The notes below the pieces were generated by a model. The model searched no databases, had not been told where the DNA came from, and saw only the letters and a program-made list of their open reading frames with translations. Made by a program: the position numbers and the translations under genes. A stretch of 49,530 nt of DNA from Escherichia phage grams: sequence record NC_049825.1; one strand, given 5' to 3'. Positions 27,364 to 38,780 of this stretch are shown one piece after another; position 1 is the stretch's first letter, and every line of letters begins with the position of its first letter.

Positions 27364-30300
27364 ATGGCTGAAAATATGATAACTGGCAGTAAGGGTGGAT
27401 CATCAAAACCTTATGTTCCAAAAGAGATGGAAGATAACCTGATCTCAATCAATAAAATCAAAATCCTTCTTGCAGTTTCCGATGGCGAGTGCGATCCAGA
27501 TTTTACACTTCGCGATCTGTATCTTGATGATGTTCCGGTAATTGCAGACGACGGAACTGTTAACTACCAGGGTGTGAGCGCAGAGTTTCGCCCAGGCACA
27601 CAGACTCAAGATTACATCCAGGGATTTACTGACACATCAAGCGAAGTGACGCTGGCGCGTGATATTACTACGTCAAATCCTTATGTGATTTCCGTAACCA
27701 ACAAAACATTATCTGCTATCAGAATCAAAATGCTAATGCCAACAGGCATTAAGCAAGAGGATAACGGCGATCTTGTCGGCGTTAAGGTTACTTATGCTGT
27801 TGATATGGCTGTTGACGGAGACTCCTACAAAGAAGTATTGCGAGACACTATCGAAGGTAAAACTCGTTCCGGTTACGACAGAAGCAGAAGGATTGACCTT
27901 CCGTCATTCAATGATCGCGTATTACTTAGGGTTAGAAGGATTACGGCAGACAGCGCATCTTCTCGTGTTACTGATCTGATTAAGCTACAAAGTTACGCTG
28001 AGGTTATTGATGCAAAATTCCGTTATCCTCTGACTGGTCTTGTATACGTTGAATTTGACAGTGAGTTGTTTCCTAACCAGATCCCAAATATTTCAATCAA
28101 GAAAAAGTGGAAACTGATTAATGTACCAAGCAACTATGATCCTGTATCTCGAGAGTATAGAGGTTCATGGGATGGAACATTCAAAAAAGCCTGGTCAAAT
28201 AATCCAGCATGGGTGCTTTACGACATCATTACAAATCAGCGTTATGGATTAGATCAGAGAGAGCTTGGTGTACAGGTTGATAAGTGGAGTCTTTACGAAG
28301 CTGCGCAATACTGCGATCAGAAAGTTCCAGACGGAAAAGGAGGCACAGAGCCACGCTATCTATGTGATGTTGTTATCCAGAGTCAGATTGAGGCTTATCA
28401 GCTTATTCGTGACATTTGCTCTATCTTCCGTGGAATGAGCTTTTGGAATGGCGAGAGTTTGTCAATCGTTATTGATAAACCACGCGATCCATCTTACATC
28501 TTCACAAATGATAACGTTGTTGATGGTGATTTCCAGTATACGACGGCAAGCGAAAAGAGCATGTACACGCAGTGCAACGTGACGTTCGACGACGAACAAA
28601 ACATGTATCAACAGGACGTAGAGGGCGTATTCGACACCGAGGCAGCATTGCGCTTTGGATACAATCCTACAAGCATAACCGCGATCGGATGTACACGCAG
28701 GAGTGAGGCTAATCGGCGCGGTCGATGGATACTAAAAACCAACTTGCGCAGCACTACGGTAAACTTTGCTACTGGACTGGAAGGCATGATCCCATCAATA
28801 GGTGATGTGATTGCTATTGCTGACAATTTTCACAGCAGCAACCTTAAATTAAACCTATCAGGGCGCGTGATGGAAGTTTCCGGCTTGCAGGTGTTCGTTC
28901 CGTTTAAGATTGACGCGCGACCAGGTGATTTCATTATCATCAACAAGCCGGACGGAAAGCCAGTTAAGCGCACAATCTCAAAAGTAAGCGATGACGGAAA
29001 AACCATTGAGCTAAACATTGGGTTTGGGTTTGAAGTTAAGCCGGATACAGTTTTTGCAATCGACCGCACTGACATTGCGTTGCAGCAATATGTTGTAACG
29101 AGTATCGGAAAAGGTGATGATGATGATGAATTTACATACTCCATCACGGCTGTTGAATATGACCCTAACAAATACGACGAGATTGATTACGGAGTAAACA
29201 TTGACGACAGGCCAACTTCAATTGTCCAGCCTGACACGATGGCAGCACCGGAAAACGTGCAAATATCCTCATACTCGCGAATTGTCCAGGGTGCAAGCGT
29301 TGAAACAATGGTTGTGTCGTGGGATAAAGTACCTTACGCATCACTGTATGAAATGCAATGGCGAAAAGGTGATGGCAACTGGCTGAATACACCACAGACC
29401 GCAAACAAAGAAATTGAGGTTGAAGGTATTTATTCAGGAAACTACCAGGTAAGGGTTAGATCTGTTTCTGCTTCAGGTTCTACGTCTCCGTGGTCCAGAA
29501 TTGTGACAGCTTCACTGACTGGTAAGGTAGGAGAGCCAGGCGCGCCAGTTAACTTAACCGCATCCGACAATGAAGTTTTTGGCATTCGTGTTAAGTGGGG
29601 GATGCCAGAAGGGAGCGGAGACACGGCATACATTGAGCTTCATCAGTCGCCAGATGGAACGGCTGAAAACTCAAGCCTGCTAACGCTGATCCCGTATCCA
29701 CAATATGAATACTGGCATGGAACTCTTCCGGCTGGTCATGTTGTATGGTATCGGATCAGGAGCGTAGACAGGATCGGCAACGTTTCCGGTTGGACTGATT
29801 TTGTTAGAGGTATGGCTTCAGATGATGTGGAGGCTGTTTTAGGAGATATTCTTGATAAGATTTTTGATACTGAAGCAGGTCAGGATCTGAAAGAGAACGC
29901 CATTGACAGTGCAAACAAGATAAAGGACCAGGCGCAAGCAATCATCCAGAATGCTCTTGCTAATGATGCTGATATTAAGTGGACGCGAGTACAAAACGGA
30001 AAGAGAAAGGCTGAATATGGTCACGCTCTTGAGCTTATAGCCACAGAGACTGAGGCACGAGTTACGCAGATTGAAGAATTGAGGGCGTCAATCGACGAGG
30101 ATATTGTTTCAAGCATAAAGACAGTGCAGGAGGCTATTGCCACAGAATCTGAAACGCGAGCAACTCAAATAAACGCTTTGGATTCAAAATTTACAACTGA
30201 AATTGACGGTGTAAAACGCGATACAGCAGCAAGCATTAATCAGGTGAATCAAACAATTGCCAACGAATCTGAAGCGAGAGCGCAGGCCGTTAACGCTCTT

Positions 30301-30942
30301 GATGCGAAGTTCACAAAGGAGATCGAAGATTTAAACGGAGTTATTAAGACTGAGGTTGAGGCTAACATCTCTGAAGTGAAACAGGCTATCGCTAACGAGA
30401 CAGAGGCAAGGGTGCAGGCTGACCAGGCGTTAACAGCTAAGTTTGGAGACGTTGAATCTGCATTAGCTCAAAAACTTGATTCATGGGCTGGCGTGTCGTC
30501 TGTTGGTGCTAAATACTCAATGAAACTTGGGTTAACTTACAACGGACAGCAGTACAGCGCAGGCATGATCATGCAGCTTTCGCAGAGTTCATCCGGCCTT
30601 ATCTCGCAGATTTTGTTTGATGCGAACAGGTTCGCCATCATGACAAGTTCGACTGGCGGGGTGTATACGCTGCCTTTCGTGGTGGAAAATAACCAGGTAT
30701 TCATTAACAGCCTGTTAGTGAAAAACGGTTCAATCACCAATGCGATGATCGGTAATTATATTCAGTCGAATAACTTTGTTGCTAATCAGCAGGGGTGGAG
30801 GCTGGATAAAAACGGCAGATTTGAGAACTACGGTTCTACATCTGGAGAAGGGGCCATGAAGTTGACCAACGAAACAATAAGTGTACGAGACGCAAACGGG
30901 CGCTTGCGTGTTCAGATTGGTAGGCTTACTGGTACATGGTAA
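27364..30942 (+). CDS. host specificity / central tail fibre protein (lambda J-like)
   Basis: 1192 aa; size, position after K and I homologues, Ala-rich coiled-coil segment and variable C-terminus. Confidence 0.85.
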   Translation: MAENMITGSKGGSSKPYVPKEMEDNLISINKIKILLAVSDGECDPDFTLRDLYLDDVPVIADDGTVNYQGVSAEFRPGTQTQDYIQGFTDTSSEVTLARDITTSNPYVISVTNKTLSAIRIKMLMPTGIKQEDNGDLVGVKVTYAVDMAVDGDSYKEVLRDTIEGKTRSGYDRSRRIDLPSFNDRVLLRVRRITADSASSRVTDLIKLQSYAEVIDAKFRYPLTGLVYVEFDSELFPNQIPNISIKKKWKLINVPSNYDPVSREYRGSWDGTFKKAWSNNPAWVLYDIITNQRYGLDQRELGVQVDKWSLYEAAQYCDQKVPDGKGGTEPRYLCDVVIQSQIEAYQLIRDICSIFRGMSFWNGESLSIVIDKPRDPSYIFTNDNVVDGDFQYTTASEKSMYTQCNVTFDDEQNMYQQDVEGVFDTEAALRFGYNPTSITAIGCTRRSEANRRGRWILKTNLRSTTVNFATGLEGMIPSIGDVIAIADNFHSSNLKLNLSGRVMEVSGLQVFVPFKIDARPGDFIIINKPDGKPVKRTISKVSDDGKTIELNIGFGFEVKPDTVFAIDRTDIALQQYVVTSIGKGDDDDEFTYSITAVEYDPNKYDEIDYGVNIDDRPTSIVQPDTMAAPENVQISSYSRIVQGASVETMVVSWDKVPYASLYEMQWRKGDGNWLNTPQTANKEIEVEGIYSGNYQVRVRSVSASGSTSPWSRIVTASLTGKVGEPGAPVNLTASDNEVFGIRVKWGMPEGSGDTAYIELHQSPDGTAENSSLLTLIPYPQYEYWHGTLPAGHVVWYRIRSVDRIGNVSGWTDFVRGMASDDVEAVLGDILDKIFDTEAGQDLKENAIDSANKIKDQAQAIIQNALANDADIKWTRVQNGKRKAEYGHALELIATETEARVTQIEELRASIDEDIVSSIKTVQEAIATESETRATQINALDSKFTTEIDGVKRDTAASINQVNQTIANESEARAQAVNALDAKFTKEIEDLNGVIKTEVEANISEVKQAIANETEARVQADQALTAKFGDVESALAQKLDSWAGVSSVGAKYSMKLGLTYNGQQYSAGMIMQLSQSSSGLISQILFDANRFAIMTSSTGGVYTLPFVVENNQVFINSLLVKNGSITNAMIGNYIQSNNFVANQQGWRLDKNGRFENYGSTSGEGAMKLTNETISVRDANGRLRVQIGRLTGTW

Positions 30943-30985
30943 AATCAAAGCGGGGCGATTGCCCCGCATCTATGGAGGTTTAATA

Positions 30986-31291
30986 ATGGCTGAATATGGT
31001 GTTTCAACGTGGGATGCTAACGGGAAGTATAACAACTACGGAATCAAGCCAGTTTCCGTTGTTGGTGTCATCAGCCTTGCCGCTGGTCAGACAAGCGGAT
31101 CGTGGAGCTTTAGCATTCCAAGTGGTTTTAAGGTTGGGTATGTTGTTTCACTTGATGAAGGTGCTAGAGGAGTTGGAAGGGAAATAGTAGCATCTGGAAA
31201 TACAATAAGAATTAGTCCTACATCGTCAATCGGTGCAAATAGATATTCTTCTTCAAAGTGCGAGTTAGTTGTTTTTCTTGAGAGGGTTTAA
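30986..31291 (+). CDS. hypothetical protein (101 aa), paralogue a
   Basis: ATG with RBS GGAGG; N-terminus MAEYGVSTWDANGKY similar to next gene. Confidence 0.5.
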   Translation: MAEYGVSTWDANGKYNNYGIKPVSVVGVISLAAGQTSGSWSFSIPSGFKVGYVVSLDEGARGVGREIVASGNTIRISPTSSIGANRYSSSKCELVVFLERV

Positions 31292-31292
31292 A

Positions 31293-31931
31293 ATGGCTGA
31301 GTATGGAGCGATGTTATCATTATCAAATGGGAATCCATTTGTTACACCAAAATCAACGCCATTTTGCTTATATGGCAAGTACACTTATTCATCTTCAGGC
31401 ACTTCTGCCTACCATAGCGCAAGCGCAAATATACCAGTAAATCAATCTTATCCATGCATGGCATTTATAAAAACAACAAACACACAACAGCCAACTGCAT
31501 TAATAGCTTACAGGAACGGTGGTAACATTTATGTAAACGGAGGCAATCCATACGGGCAATCATTTACAATGACTGTTTATATATTTGCTATATTCCCTCA
31601 AACTCTACCAAAATATGGTATGGCTATATGGGATGCAAGCGGAAAGTTGGTTTTAACTAATGAAAGCAGGGTGCTAACAGACCTTGTGACAATTGGCACT
31701 CCTGGATCTTCAGGTGGGACGAATATAGATCAGACATTATCTGGTTCTTATGCCGTTTGCCCATCAAGGCTTGGTGCGGTTATAGGTATGGGTGCGTCTG
31801 ACATATATACATCATGCAGGTATAATGGTTCAGTCACAAGGATAGGTGCAGCAAGGACAACTCCAGGGACGGGTTCTATAACAAATAACGGAAATTCAAT
31901 AATTGCAATAAAGACTGATATTTACGACTAA
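31293..31931 (+). CDS. hypothetical protein (212 aa), paralogue b
   Basis: N-terminus MAEYG and WDASGK block shared with preceding gene. Confidence 0.5.
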   Translation: MAEYGAMLSLSNGNPFVTPKSTPFCLYGKYTYSSSGTSAYHSASANIPVNQSYPCMAFIKTTNTQQPTALIAYRNGGNIYVNGGNPYGQSFTMTVYIFAIFPQTLPKYGMAIWDASGKLVLTNESRVLTDLVTIGTPGSSGGTNIDQTLSGSYAVCPSRLGAVIGMGASDIYTSCRYNGSVTRIGAARTTPGTGSITNNGNSIIAIKTDIYD

Positions 31932-35317: not shown

Positions 35318-35345
35318 CAAAGGGGCATTACGCCCCTTTTTCACT
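35318..35345. terminator. bidirectional intrinsic terminator
   Basis: AAAGGGGCATTACGCCCCTTTTT between convergent genes. Confidence 0.7.
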
Positions 35346-35585
35346 TTCAGCCATCCCAAGCACGGCAATCACCTTAACAGCAATTCTCTTTGCAAGTTCA
35401 GTTTGATGAGCGTTAAGTTTTCCAGTGGTCATTATTGACAACATTCCGCTCATACTTCCAAGCCCGTTAAAATCTGACATTGCTGATTTCATTATTGATA
35501 TTGGTGAGTGACCTTCATCAGCTATTGTGTGCGCTCTCTCTGAAAGGTCTTTAACTACCTGATCAATTCCTTCACTTTTCGTCAT
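35328..35585 (-). CDS. hypothetical protein (85 aa)
   Basis: ORF, last gene of leftward operon. Confidence 0.45.
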   Translation of the reverse strand: MTKSEGIDQVVKDLSERAHTIADEGHSPISIMKSAMSDFNGLGSMSGMLSIMTTGKLNAHQTELAKRIAVKVIAVLGMAESEKGA

Positions 35586-36063
35586 TTGCTTTTCCTTCAG
35601 GAGTTGATTGCTGTTCTGGCATTACAGGCCACGGGCTAATTGATTCCCTTTCTGCTACTGGCTTTTCAGGTTCAATTCCTAAAAACTTTCCTACAAACTC
35701 ACCAACAAAATTTGAGCTATCGCTTACATAAACATGCATCCTGTCTAGATCTGCAACAGTAACGCTATTTGGTGCGATCATGATCCTCTGTTGGTGGAAA
35801 CCGATATACATCACATTAGCCGGACGCTCAAGAGTCCCCATATTTGGCGCAATTACGCCCATTATCCAACAATAATGAATGTTGCCATCAAGCGGCTCAC
35901 ATCCAGCGTTAAGCCAGTTTACTTTCTGGTGAGGAAACGCCATTGATGAATCAGTAGCATCACGCCGTAACGACCATTTAACGCCGCCAATCTCAATGAT
36001 TTGTTTCGGCCTCATCCCGTTGAATTGAGTCACGCCAGCGCCATTTTGATTAATGTTTTGCAT
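35572..36063 (-). CDS. hypothetical protein (163 aa)
   Basis: ORF in operon. Confidence 0.5.
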   Translation of the reverse strand: MQNINQNGAGVTQFNGMRPKQIIEIGGVKWSLRRDATDSSMAFPHQKVNWLNAGCEPLDGNIHYCWIMGVIAPNMGTLERPANVMYIGFHQQRIMIAPNSVTVADLDRMHVYVSDSSNFVGEFVGKFLGIEPEKPVAERESISPWPVMPEQQSTPEGKANDEK

Positions 36064-36077
36064 ATCGGTTAACCTTT

Positions 36078-36401
36078 TTACATTGATTTCATTTTACGCA
36101 ATGCGCAGATACAAGCGGCAGCAAGATCGGTTAATTCTTTCTCAATGCCATGATGCGAGCCGTCTGCCTTTTCGGTCATTAGCTCTTTGTATTCCATTTC
36201 TACAATCGACATTAAGCCGCCTGGCTTGTCAATGTGCGCGTCCCAGGTTTTAGGATAGTGCTTAGTTCTTTCCATAACACTTCCCATAACTGAATCATGT
36301 TTGCTATCTCGCTCATAATCATCATCATGATCATCACTCCCGATTGAAACTCGCGGCAAATGAATGCGCGGTATTTTATAGCCAGCATAACGGATCTTCA
36401 T
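36078..36401 (-). CDS. possible MazG-like nucleotide pyrophosphohydrolase
   Basis: 107 aa; paired EEx-EL-like blocks (VEMEYKELMTEK, EKELTDLAAACICALRK); weak. Confidence 0.3.
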   Translation of the reverse strand: MKIRYAGYKIPRIHLPRVSIGSDDHDDDYERDSKHDSVMGSVMERTKHYPKTWDAHIDKPGGLMSIVEMEYKELMTEKADGSHHGIEKELTDLAAACICALRKMKSM

Positions 36402-36450
36402 TATCTCGCCCTCTTGATGAAAAGCGCCCCGAAAGGCGCTTGATTTATTA

Positions 36451-37152
36451 TCAGCCGCAACAGCCAGTAGGCGGAGTCTGAGGAGTAGGCAACTTGAAGT
36501 TTACCAATTGCTCTACCTGGTTGATTTTGCAATTCAGTGCGGCGGTCTGGTTTGCCTGAGAAAGAGCAAAACGAGCCTCCTGCAACTGAGCTTTCATATC
36601 GCAAATCAGAACAGCCTGAGAATCAGCGAACTGTTGACGAATCAGATCTCGCGTTGCGTTACCTTGTCGCTCAATGTTCAGGTTAGTCTCGCAGCAACAT
36701 CTCTCAGCTGCAATCTGTGCCTGATAGGAACGCTCAAGAGCATTAACATCAGCAGCATTAATCGCAGCAACTGTCTGGTTAGTACCGCTAACAATCGCGG
36801 TATTCAGTCCGGCGAAACCTTGCACCGATGCAAGCAGGCTTTGCGTATTCTGGCTGGTAATGCCGTTAAATGTTGATGCGGCGGAGCGCTCAACGGCAAG
36901 GTTTGTGGAGTTTTGGCCTTGCAGAGTTTGCAGTCCTAGGTTGTTTACGCCTGTCTGGATGTTATTAATACCATCAAGAACAGCGTTAGCACCGACAGCA
37001 ACAGCCGCACCATCACCACCATAACCACCACGACCATTAAATCCGTTACCAAACCATGACCCAATCAGGCCGCCAACAGCACCGCCAAGACCAGCCGCGC
37101 CAGCTTCGCCACCAAAACCACCACCAGTAGGGAGTAAAGTCATATCTGACAT
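36451..37152 (-). CDS. glycine-rich, Cys-clustered protein (233 aa)
   Basis: ATG at 37152 with RBS AGAGGA; about 60-residue Gly-rich N-terminus, Gln/Asn/Thr/Ser-rich middle, CCC and CCG clusters near C-terminus. Confidence 0.55.
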   Translation of the reverse strand: MSDMTLLPTGGGFGGEAGAAGLGGAVGGLIGSWFGNGFNGRGGYGGDGAAVAVGANAVLDGINNIQTGVNNLGLQTLQGQNSTNLAVERSAASTFNGITSQNTQSLLASVQGFAGLNTAIVSGTNQTVAAINAADVNALERSYQAQIAAERCCCETNLNIERQGNATRDLIRQQFADSQAVLICDMKAQLQEARFALSQANQTAALNCKINQVEQLVNFKLPTPQTPPTGCCG

Positions 37153-37330
37153 AGTAAATTCCTCTTTGACGTTAAAAAAATTAAAAAAAGTTTGCAACAT
37201 TTATGTTACGACAAAGAGTATGCGCCAAATTACCAGGAATAGATATAAAACATTTGTAAGCGATATGTCAGCAAATGGCATAAAGACGAAAAAAGGCGCA
37301 GCCGTAGCAGCGCCTTGTGATTATTTTTTG

Positions 37331-38698
37331 TTAACTCTCAAGAGTTGTCTGTTTGTTGATTAATGCAGAAACAGCCGCTTTCAGTTCTTCAACCTCCTTT
37401 TCAAGTTTTGCTATTTTTTCTTTGTTATCAACATCACGAGAACGTAGAGCCTTTATTGCAGCCAATCCATCAAGAAGCATTGGTGTTTGATCTAAATGAA
37501 GAATGCCGCCAATTTCTTTTGTGTATTCTCTATCTATCTTTCTGATTTGTTGAGATATAACGCCCCTTCTATAACTTCTTTCTGGGCCATCAGATAAATA
37601 TGAAAATATTTTAAAATCCATCCTGTTTATATTGTCTAAAGCGCCTTCAATATTAAGATTTCCCTTAATATTTTTCATTGTTTCATCTGATATTGCGTAA
37701 GTGGTTAGGCCAGCCCACGCACTCCATGCTCCAGATTCCATTGTTCTTGCATAAAATGACGAATTACGTGCTGACAACTGAAAAACATAATTATCTGGCG
37801 AACCAACATGAGGGATATTTATACCAAATGTAACTAGGCTAGACGCTCCATTTGTTGAGCCAGTAAAGAATCTATAATATTTTGTGGAGTTTAAATCGCT
37901 CCAGTCTGAATCACCATACTCAGCCCATGCCAATTTTTGATTTTTTGCATATTCCTCAGTGCTTTGATATCCAGTTCCTCCTTGATCAATTCCCAATGGT
38001 ATCCATCCAGGAGTATTATTTTTTGTAACTCCCCATTCACCATTGTTTGCAAGACTGAATTTATAATCACCAACAGTCATTACTGTTGACGTTGTTTCTT
38101 GTACAAATCTGTCTACGCTTAGGTTTTTTCTTGCTTCACCTTTATCTGCAACATCGCTAAGGTTGTTGTTTTTGTTAAGCATATTTGCCGGATTTATGCT
38201 ATCTGCATATTCTTTCGCCTTATCTTCAGAAGCCTTAGCGGCATTTTTTGAAGTCAGAGCATCAGAAGCAGATCTCGCTGCGGCATCCTTGCTTTGATTC
38301 GCAGACGCTGCGTTTTCTTCCACCTGTTTAGCCAAATCTTGATAATGCTTCCAATCAAACGTCTTAAAGAATTCCAGCGCTTCCCCGATCTCTGATTCTT
38401 TACTCTGATAGTAGCGCAATGTTTCCGCTACATCTTGAGCAAGCCCATCAACAGTTATTGAGTCATGAAGCAAGATCGCGTAATTTGAGCGAGCAACTAC
38501 CGCACCTCCAGTTGTAATTGCACGAATGCTTGTATCGTTGATAACTTCAGTTATTACAGCAATCTGCAACGGCTGAGTTAAAAATACAATGGTCGCACCA
38601 GGGCGAATGAGTGTTAGTTGCTCTCGCCATTTTGTGTCGTATCCAGTGATATAACCTTGTGCGTCCATTGACGCTTGTCCGGTTCTGTAAATTGCCAT
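37331..38698 (-). CDS. tail fibre protein with C-terminal intramolecular chaperone domain
   Basis: ATG at 38698 with RBS GGGAGA; Ala/Ser/Lys-rich repeats like fibre shafts; C-terminal region recalled as resembling autoproteolytic chaperone domains of T5 L-shaped fibre. Confidence 0.65.
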
Positions 38699-38761
38699 GC
38701 GTTTTCTCCCATGTTGCATGTTAATGTCAATGCAGATAATAGCATTTGCTAAGGCCAAAAA

Positions 38762-38780
38762 AAACCCCGCAATGCGGGGT
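38762..38780. terminator. hairpin terminator
   Basis: A-run then CCCCGCAATGCGGGG. Confidence 0.5.

Follow-up and report, generated by a model that had tools for sequence, protein, structure and literature searches.

A lateral tail fibre gene of Escherichia phage grams with a predicted self-cleaving chaperone domain and a mosaic core

Our analysis indicates that the minus-strand gene at 37331-38698 of Escherichia phage grams very probably encodes the lateral tail fibre of a T1-like siphovirus, which would mature with the help of a Peptidase_S74 chaperone and act within the model of adsorption in which a glycan is bound first. The window, that is, the whole stretch of DNA analysed, spans 49,530 nucleotides and corresponds to MN850567 (49,530 bp, a Hanrivervirus of the Drexlerviridae that was isolated on E. 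coli K-12 MG1655; Olsen 2020); across its first 25 kb it shares 95-96% identity with herni, JLBYU41, pSf-1 and further Hanriverviruses. The identity of the gene, the order of its domains, its intact Ser-Lys dyad, its conserved locus and its intragenic cassette were computed here. The architecture and the cassette behaviour had already been published (Olsen 2020, Maffei 2021) and the protein is already annotated in this way, so that neither is new. The value of the results lies mainly in annotation: the anchor, the coiled coil, the variable region, the knob and the predicted cleavage site at Ile336/Ser337 are now pinned to positions in the protein.

The gene and the signals around it are the following.

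37331..38698 (-), lateral tail fibre gene (open reading frame and start codon, PHROGs match, identity to the NCBI protein; precursor of 50.3 kDa)
38706..38710 (-), ribosome-binding site GGGAG, 7 nt upstream of the fibre ATG, read off the sequence
38764..38780 (-), terminator-like hairpin followed by T8, between primase and fibre gene (-15.3 kcal/mol, z=-3.1)
37287..37316 (-), terminator-like hairpin followed by T6, directly past the fibre stop codon (-15.8 kcal/mol, z=-3.4)

The reading frame opens with an ATG at 38698, ends with its stop at 37331 and encodes 455 residues plus the stop codon. Its longest mechanical version opens 20 codons earlier, at a TTG at 38758 (475 aa), but we rejected this start because it falls within the T-tract of the primase terminator, has no ribosome-binding site, and because 22 of the 23 fibre homologues start with MAIY or MALY at the position of the ATG. 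The best PHROGs match of the protein is to tail fibre families (E=5.9e-84), and with the NCBI entry 'tail fiber protein [Escherichia phage grams]' it shares 100% identity; its UniRef name is 'Peptidase S74 domain-containing protein'. The frame, the start and the fibre families thus bear out a sequence-only reading of this DNA, which had described a fibre-like protein of 455 residues on the opposite strand. None of 200 shuffled sequences folded as well as the hairpin past the stop codon. A scan for sigma-70 promoters returned fewer sites than in shuffles, and the interval from the upstream terminator to the fibre start codon contained none.

The protein can be divided into five consecutive parts, the last of which carries the two residues of the predicted active site.

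38459..38698 (-), N-terminal beta-rich anchor, aa 1-80 (Depo32-type match, conservation, AF2 strands)
38189..38458 (-), Ala/Ser/Lys-rich alpha-helical heptad shaft, aa 81-170 (AF2 helices, composition, heptad signal)
37910..38188 (-), variable beta region with a fibre repeat unit (.. GGTG), aa 171-263 (matches to several stretches of other fibres, divergence)
37691..37909 (-), distal knob domain, aa 264-336, tip of the predicted mature fibre
37334..37690 (-), Peptidase_S74 intramolecular chaperone auto-cleavage domain, aa 337-455 (Pfam, PDB profile, Foldseek)
37688..37690 (-), codon of Ser337, predicted nucleophile (invariance, alignment to S-D-x-R-x-K)
37673..37675 (-), codon of Lys342, predicted general base, five residues past Ser337 (invariance, spacing)

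The proximal half of the fibre comprises the anchor and the shaft. Residues 1-163 match Depo32 of Klebsiella phage GH-K3 and its relatives in the PDB (7vyv, 7vz3, 7lzj; E=1e-52), and the paper on Depo32 assigns the matching region, in KP36-like, T1-related phages, to a conserved N-terminal anchor with a helical bundle. The AF2 monomer has strands across aa 2-77, and aa 1-120 are 98-99% identical to the nearest relatives. Residues 1-80 form the Drexlerviridae-wide anchor, by which the fibre would be attached to the virion. The anchor is followed by modelled helices at aa 83-113 and 116-167 and by a region of biased composition (18% Ala, 12% Ser and 11% Lys over residues 121-215). In the grams fibre the heptad autocorrelation reaches z=1.9 across some 50 residues, whereas longer homologues give z=3.5-7, and the alignment of the 23 homologues shows that in-frame indels make the shaft differ in length from one protein to another. 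Because of this heptad signal and of the modelled helix over aa 83-167, we interpret the Ala/Ser/Lys stretch as a predicted coiled coil rather than a beta shaft. The stretch had earlier been read as a shaft with Ala/Ser/Lys-rich repeats: the composition and the shaft-like character stand, but the repeats hold only weakly and the shaft would be of the coiled-coil type.

The distal part has few close relatives. When aa 186-336 were searched exhaustively against 1.84 billion cluster representatives, 114 relatives appeared at E<=1e-3, and just one at E<1e-30; the latter, P0003, is 50% identical over the distal 140 residues and is, with P0002, one of the two closest proteins from the metagenome collection. 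The matches divide the region in two. The first portion is a fibre repeat unit bearing the GGTG motif, which is present in 3-5 copies in longer fibres, so that query positions ~3-60 match several stretches of fibres of 1,000 aa. The second is a terminal domain of ~75 residues with the signature D-W-N...Q.AGRN..FY.R..E.G.W..W. Over aa 189-336, the modules share 30-48% identity with fibres from T5-like Salmonella phages; no T5-type chain is found among the PDB matches of the tip profile, and the knob model does not retrieve a T5 fibre chain either. What the model of the knob does retrieve are the knobs of R-type pyocins (6cl5, 6cl6, 6cu2) and of the receptor-binding proteins of Staphylococcus phage K/phi812 (5m9f, 9euf). 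The best hit of the tip in a profile search of the PDB is also an R2 pyocin, at an E=0.28 that is below significance. Hence, aa 264-336 are modelled with a pyocin-type knob fold, and we restrict the claim to fold, without family membership, because the relationship between sequence profiles is not significant.

Searches for known domains in the tip were negative. Pfam and NCBIfam matched nothing there, and found no beta-helix or enzymatic domain in the protein; Pfam on 23 tip-domain sequences gave no relevant family, the single match being that of one member to BamE (E=0.086). In the full-length AF2 monomer aa 196-301 are poorly modelled; as a Foldseek query, the monomer recovered the intramolecular chaperone (ICA) domain only, plus spurious matches to an ATPase and to Uba1. 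The knob, the putative tip of the mature fibre, is likely to be its ligand-binding part. In the fibres of R-pyocins, tandem knobs precede a separate domain at the tip of the fibre. For this reason, that the lone knob of grams is the sole binding domain is something that we infer.

The C-terminal domain belongs to Peptidase_S74. Pfam places this family (PF13884) on aa 337-389 with E=1.6e-6 and a score of 28.7 bits, which exceeds the gathering score of 22. The profile of the whole domain matches a T5-type L-shaped tail fibre in the PDB (8hqz_d, 1.8e-24), the ICA of MyRF (7dc3, 2.2e-12) and, further down, 6f45 (2e-10), 8jov (4.3e-10) and 3gud (1.7e-3). Foldseek aligns the model of the domain with the MyRF ICA over 123 columns (E=4.8e-4, TMt 0.59-0.63). 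In the AF2 model, strands occupy 363-402 and a helix spans 404-452, and pLDDT is 70-86 over most of the domain; a small beta part and a long C-terminal helix, which forms the trimeric coiled coil, are what the S74/ICA fold leads one to expect. The suggestion that the C-terminal region resembles autoproteolytic chaperones is therefore confirmed by domain search, PDB profiles and structural comparison.

The residues expected to carry out the cleavage are intact. In S337-DETM-K342, both members of the dyad are invariant in the 23 homologues, which are 43-83% identical to the query, and the two are in register with the S-D-x-R-x-K motif of 6f45, 8jov and MyRF. The spacing between serine and lysine is the same as in MyRF S587/K592 and endoNF S911/K916, two dyads shown by mutagenesis to be indispensable, with cleavage taking place just before the serine (PMC8326128). 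Because the grams dyad lines up with these two, and the cut precedes the serine, self-cleavage is predicted between Ile336 and Ser337. If it occurs, the precursor of 50.3 kDa would give a mature fibre of 36.9 kDa and a released chaperone of 13.5 kDa (computed masses).

The gene has the ssb/recombination block on one side and the primase on the other; this is the site that the Drexlerviridae conserve for lateral fibres, and not an unusual placement. The same gene order is found in six relatives, JakobBernoulli, vB_Eco-B1.3, herni, Fulano1, JLBYU09 and vojen: exonuclease, recombinase and ssb, followed on the other strand by three small genes, a Gly-rich gene and the tail fibre, and then by primase, regulator and helicase. 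A lateral tail fibre is annotated at this locus in all six, in JakobBernoulli as 'lateral tail fiber protein'. This fits the description of the locus by Maffei 2021 (S1C Fig), with conserved syntenic flanks and genes that share only their 5' end, the rest being highly diverse.

The comparison of nucleotide sequences reveals a mosaic core within the gene.

37411..38305 (-), variable cassette within the gene, about aa 132-429 (breakpoints from blastn with six relatives, GC content)

The flanks are 91-96% identical to the six relatives, with breakpoints inside the fibre gene: identity reaches 37392-37410 on one side (37675 in two phages with a related chaperone domain) and restarts at 38211-38365 on the other. 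Between the breakpoints there is no nucleotide match, except for a shaft segment of ~180 nt common to grams and those two phages. The GC content of 37411-38305 is 37.4%, against 44.1% genome-wide, which is at the 1.1 percentile of windows of the same size. The ~95% identical flanks, the core without match and its low GC support the view that the core of the gene has been exchanged among otherwise ~95% identical Hanriverviruses and is a candidate intragenic host-range cassette. Olsen 2020 had already noted that unique fibre versions among the Hanriverviruses of the same phage set pointed to divergent host ranges. The proposal that this gene is a host-range cassette thus finds a basis in the mosaic core and its composition, but its original argument, the separate location of the gene, is no evidence, since the locus is family-wide. 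Closer relatives narrow the specificity determinant further. Relative to P0002 and P0003, aa 1-195 and 334-455 are 96-99% identical, aa 196-263 only 32%, and the knob ~60%; because divergence is concentrated in aa 196-333, the determinant would lie within ~140 residues (aa 196-336). This segment could guide fibre-swap engineering in T1-like phages.

The fibre is not the only candidate receptor-binding protein of grams.

27364..30942 (+), J-like protein of the central tail tip, 1192 aa (matched by lambda_TipJ of NCBIfam at E=6.2e-133, under the curated cut-off)
30881..31931 (+), locus downstream of J with outer-membrane/Cor-type superinfection-exclusion and membrane proteins (PHROGs 557 and 425)

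The fibre gene lies ~6.4 kb beyond the J-like gene, on the other strand and adjoining the primase, which agrees with the earlier claim of a second fibre besides a J-like central one. The families PHROGs 557 and 425 are described as 'outer membrane protein' and 'membrane associated protein', and a Cor superinfection exclusion protein is annotated downstream of J in relatives; this locus is associated with the specificity for the terminal receptor. The stretch 30881-31931 is 94.2% identical, over 100% of the query, to JLBYU41, a phage shown experimentally to depend on FhuA. Because of this similarity, the J-tip module, and with it the terminal receptor of grams, is probably of the FhuA type. There are two fibre systems, as had been proposed, but they would not be independent, because the accepted model is one of sequential action.

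According to this model, fibre and J-tip module would act one after the other. By analogy with the solved S74 systems (endoNF, T5 pb1, MyRF), the C-terminal domains would set three chains in register, after which the trimer would cut itself at the predicted site and free the chaperone, leaving the mature chain with the knob as its exposed tip. From what is proposed for Drexlerviridae and T5, the fibres would then bind reversibly to a variable surface glycan, most likely of the O-antigen type, and this binding would speed or permit access to the terminal receptor, which the J-tip module would read irreversibly at the tail tip. The two-step adsorption, by the fibre and then by the J-tip/FhuA-type module, is the accepted view, although it was never directly proven for Drexlerviridae; in the words of Maffei 2021, the O-antigen role of their lateral fibres 'has never been directly demonstrated'. 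The family model also implies that the fibre would be dispensable on rough K-12. In JLBYU09, a sister Hanrivervirus grown on a K-12 derivative, all that remains of the fibre gene is two fragments of 207 and 95 aa (3526-4372 of L005). These fragments are consistent with a fibre that is dispensable on rough laboratory hosts.

The isolation host of grams is K-12, which has no O-antigen, and this bears on the nature of the ligand. The main rival reading of the grams allele, which we regard as unlikely, keeps the same fibre but gives it another ligand, the core of rough LPS or an outer-membrane protein, so that it would aid the infection of K-12. Isolation on MG1655 with an intact fibre gene is what this reading expects, and some Drexlerviridae do require an intact LPS core, and Rtp requires LPS (Maffei 2021 among the sources); the tip without recognizable lectin or enzymatic domain is also in its favor. 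Yet, the distal part is hypervariable among near-identical phages, as expected if it recognizes variable glycans and not a conserved core, and most of the fibre gene was lost in JLBYU09 in spite of its growth on K-12. Another reading is that the grams fibre, the shortest allele among the 23 aligned homologues and with 40-60 shaft residues fewer than its nearest relatives P0002 and P0003, might be decaying or being minimized by in-frame deletions on hosts where it is useless, to the point of no longer binding anything useful; JLBYU09 is an example of such a loss. This reading is improbable, because the reading frame, the anchor, the knob and the chaperone domain are intact, both residues of the dyad are kept, and heptad indels alter shaft length across the whole family.

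The glycan-binding lateral fibre remains the preferred reading also when compared with that of a tailspike with depolymerase activity. The latter arises because the best PDB sequence matches carry the name 'Depolymerase', but these matches are confined to aa 1-163, where the anchor and helical bundle are shared. Pfam and NCBIfam show no beta-helix or enzymatic domain that could account for the activity, and the remaining 170 residues are too few for an enzyme body and fold as a small knob. We rejected the tailspike reading on the grounds that the PDB matches are limited to the shared anchor, and regard it as hardly credible.

Comparison with known systems places the grams fibre among several families that share some of its parts. 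One is Gp36 of JakobBernoulli (Bas07), from the same genus and locus, with ~92% nucleotide identity at the 5' end of the gene and the same plan of anchor, coiled coil, tip and C-terminal intramolecular chaperone (IMC); Humolli 2025 describes it as a coiled coil with a receptor-binding tip and a C-terminal IMC. The distal parts are, however, unrelated at the nucleotide level, Gp36 has 741 aa against 455 in grams, and a 'T5-like tip' is reported there whereas the grams fibre has a single knob. The T5-type L-shaped fibre (pb1 family; 8hqz chain d) shares the S74 domain, and is also presumed to bind a glycan reversibly ahead of a porin receptor. The S74/ICA proteins endosialidase endoNF, phage GA-1 neck appendage (3gud) and MyRF (7dc3) resemble the grams domain in profile, fold and Ser-x4-Lys register, and in its location at the C-terminus past a trimeric stalk; but S74/ICA tailspikes have a triple beta-helix where the grams fibre has a coiled coil and a knob, and in grams the cleavage is predicted. 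Depo32 (GH-K3 gp32; 7vyv, 7vz3), from a Klebsiella Webervirus, has the anchor and helical bundle in common with aa 1-163, and would therefore attach to a T1-like tail in the same way, but continues into a beta-helix lyase body and a carbohydrate-binding module; the grams fibre has neither and ends in S74. Finally, the knobs of R-pyocins and of phage K/phi812 differ from that of grams in that their sequence similarity to it is not significant, and, in the case of R-pyocins, in that grams has one knob directly before the predicted cleavage site.

Several observations concern the gene directly downstream of the fibre (36454-37152, minus strand). It encodes a protein of 233 aa with a Gly-rich N-terminus and Cys clusters (CCC...CCG), which belongs to PHROG 9288, a family to which no function is assigned there, and which had no match in Pfam and NCBIfam; against the PDB it gave weak matches only (E ~0.05), to the fusion-peptide region of influenza HA2, that are probably compositional. 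Homologues were located at 3731-4513 in L007, 4791-5432 in L008 and 3839-4462 in L009. The gene is found directly downstream of lateral fibre genes in Drexlerviridae, Queuovirinae and T5-like phages, with amino acid identities of 68% in the Seuratvirus SeppeHuegi and of 45% in the T5-like Epseptimavirus vB_SenS-3. The protein may be a fibre-associated or membrane-active accessory. We rejected the idea that its gene belongs to the variable cassette, since beside quite different fibres it stays 91-95% conserved. Two further proposals, that the rare grams fibre allele may define an uncharacterised receptor specificity via its lone knob and that the Gly-rich gene may be a hitherto overlooked lateral-fibre accessory, are tentative, and we regard them as unlikely.

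The Gly-rich gene carries independent in-frame C-to-T nonsense changes at Gln codons in three isolates: TAA in JakobBernoulli (L001 3143-3847, minus strand), and TAG in both SeppeHuegi (L007 3731-4513, plus strand) and vB_SenS-3 (L008 4791-5345, plus strand). Past the nonsense codon, JakobBernoulli and SeppeHuegi keep the sequence conserved, and in frame, up to the gene's end; in vB_SenS-3 this holds at first, with the frame damaged later. Either the stop codons are read through or the gene was recently knocked out, a loss that would have been tolerated or selected for in culture. Because of these changes annotations split the gene, as in the 'putative sugar-binding protein' of JakobBernoulli. 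The gene is part of a four-gene block (35328-37200, minus strand), together with genes for proteins of 107, 163 and 85 aa, for which Pfam gave nothing usable. The block is collinear in SeppeHuegi (52-68% amino acid identity) and in Yersinia phage vB_YenM_39 (34-47%), and in the latter there is no fibre gene beside it.

A last observation concerns public records. About 20 entries named 'Campylobacter phage', with Campylobacter jejuni as host (MG065636, MG065637, MG065640, MG065641 and others), are 89-94% identical to grams, and the identity spans the fibre, primase and Cor loci. Because these genomes look like those of T1-like coliphages, the records are likely the result of contamination or mislabelling, as judged from their sequences.
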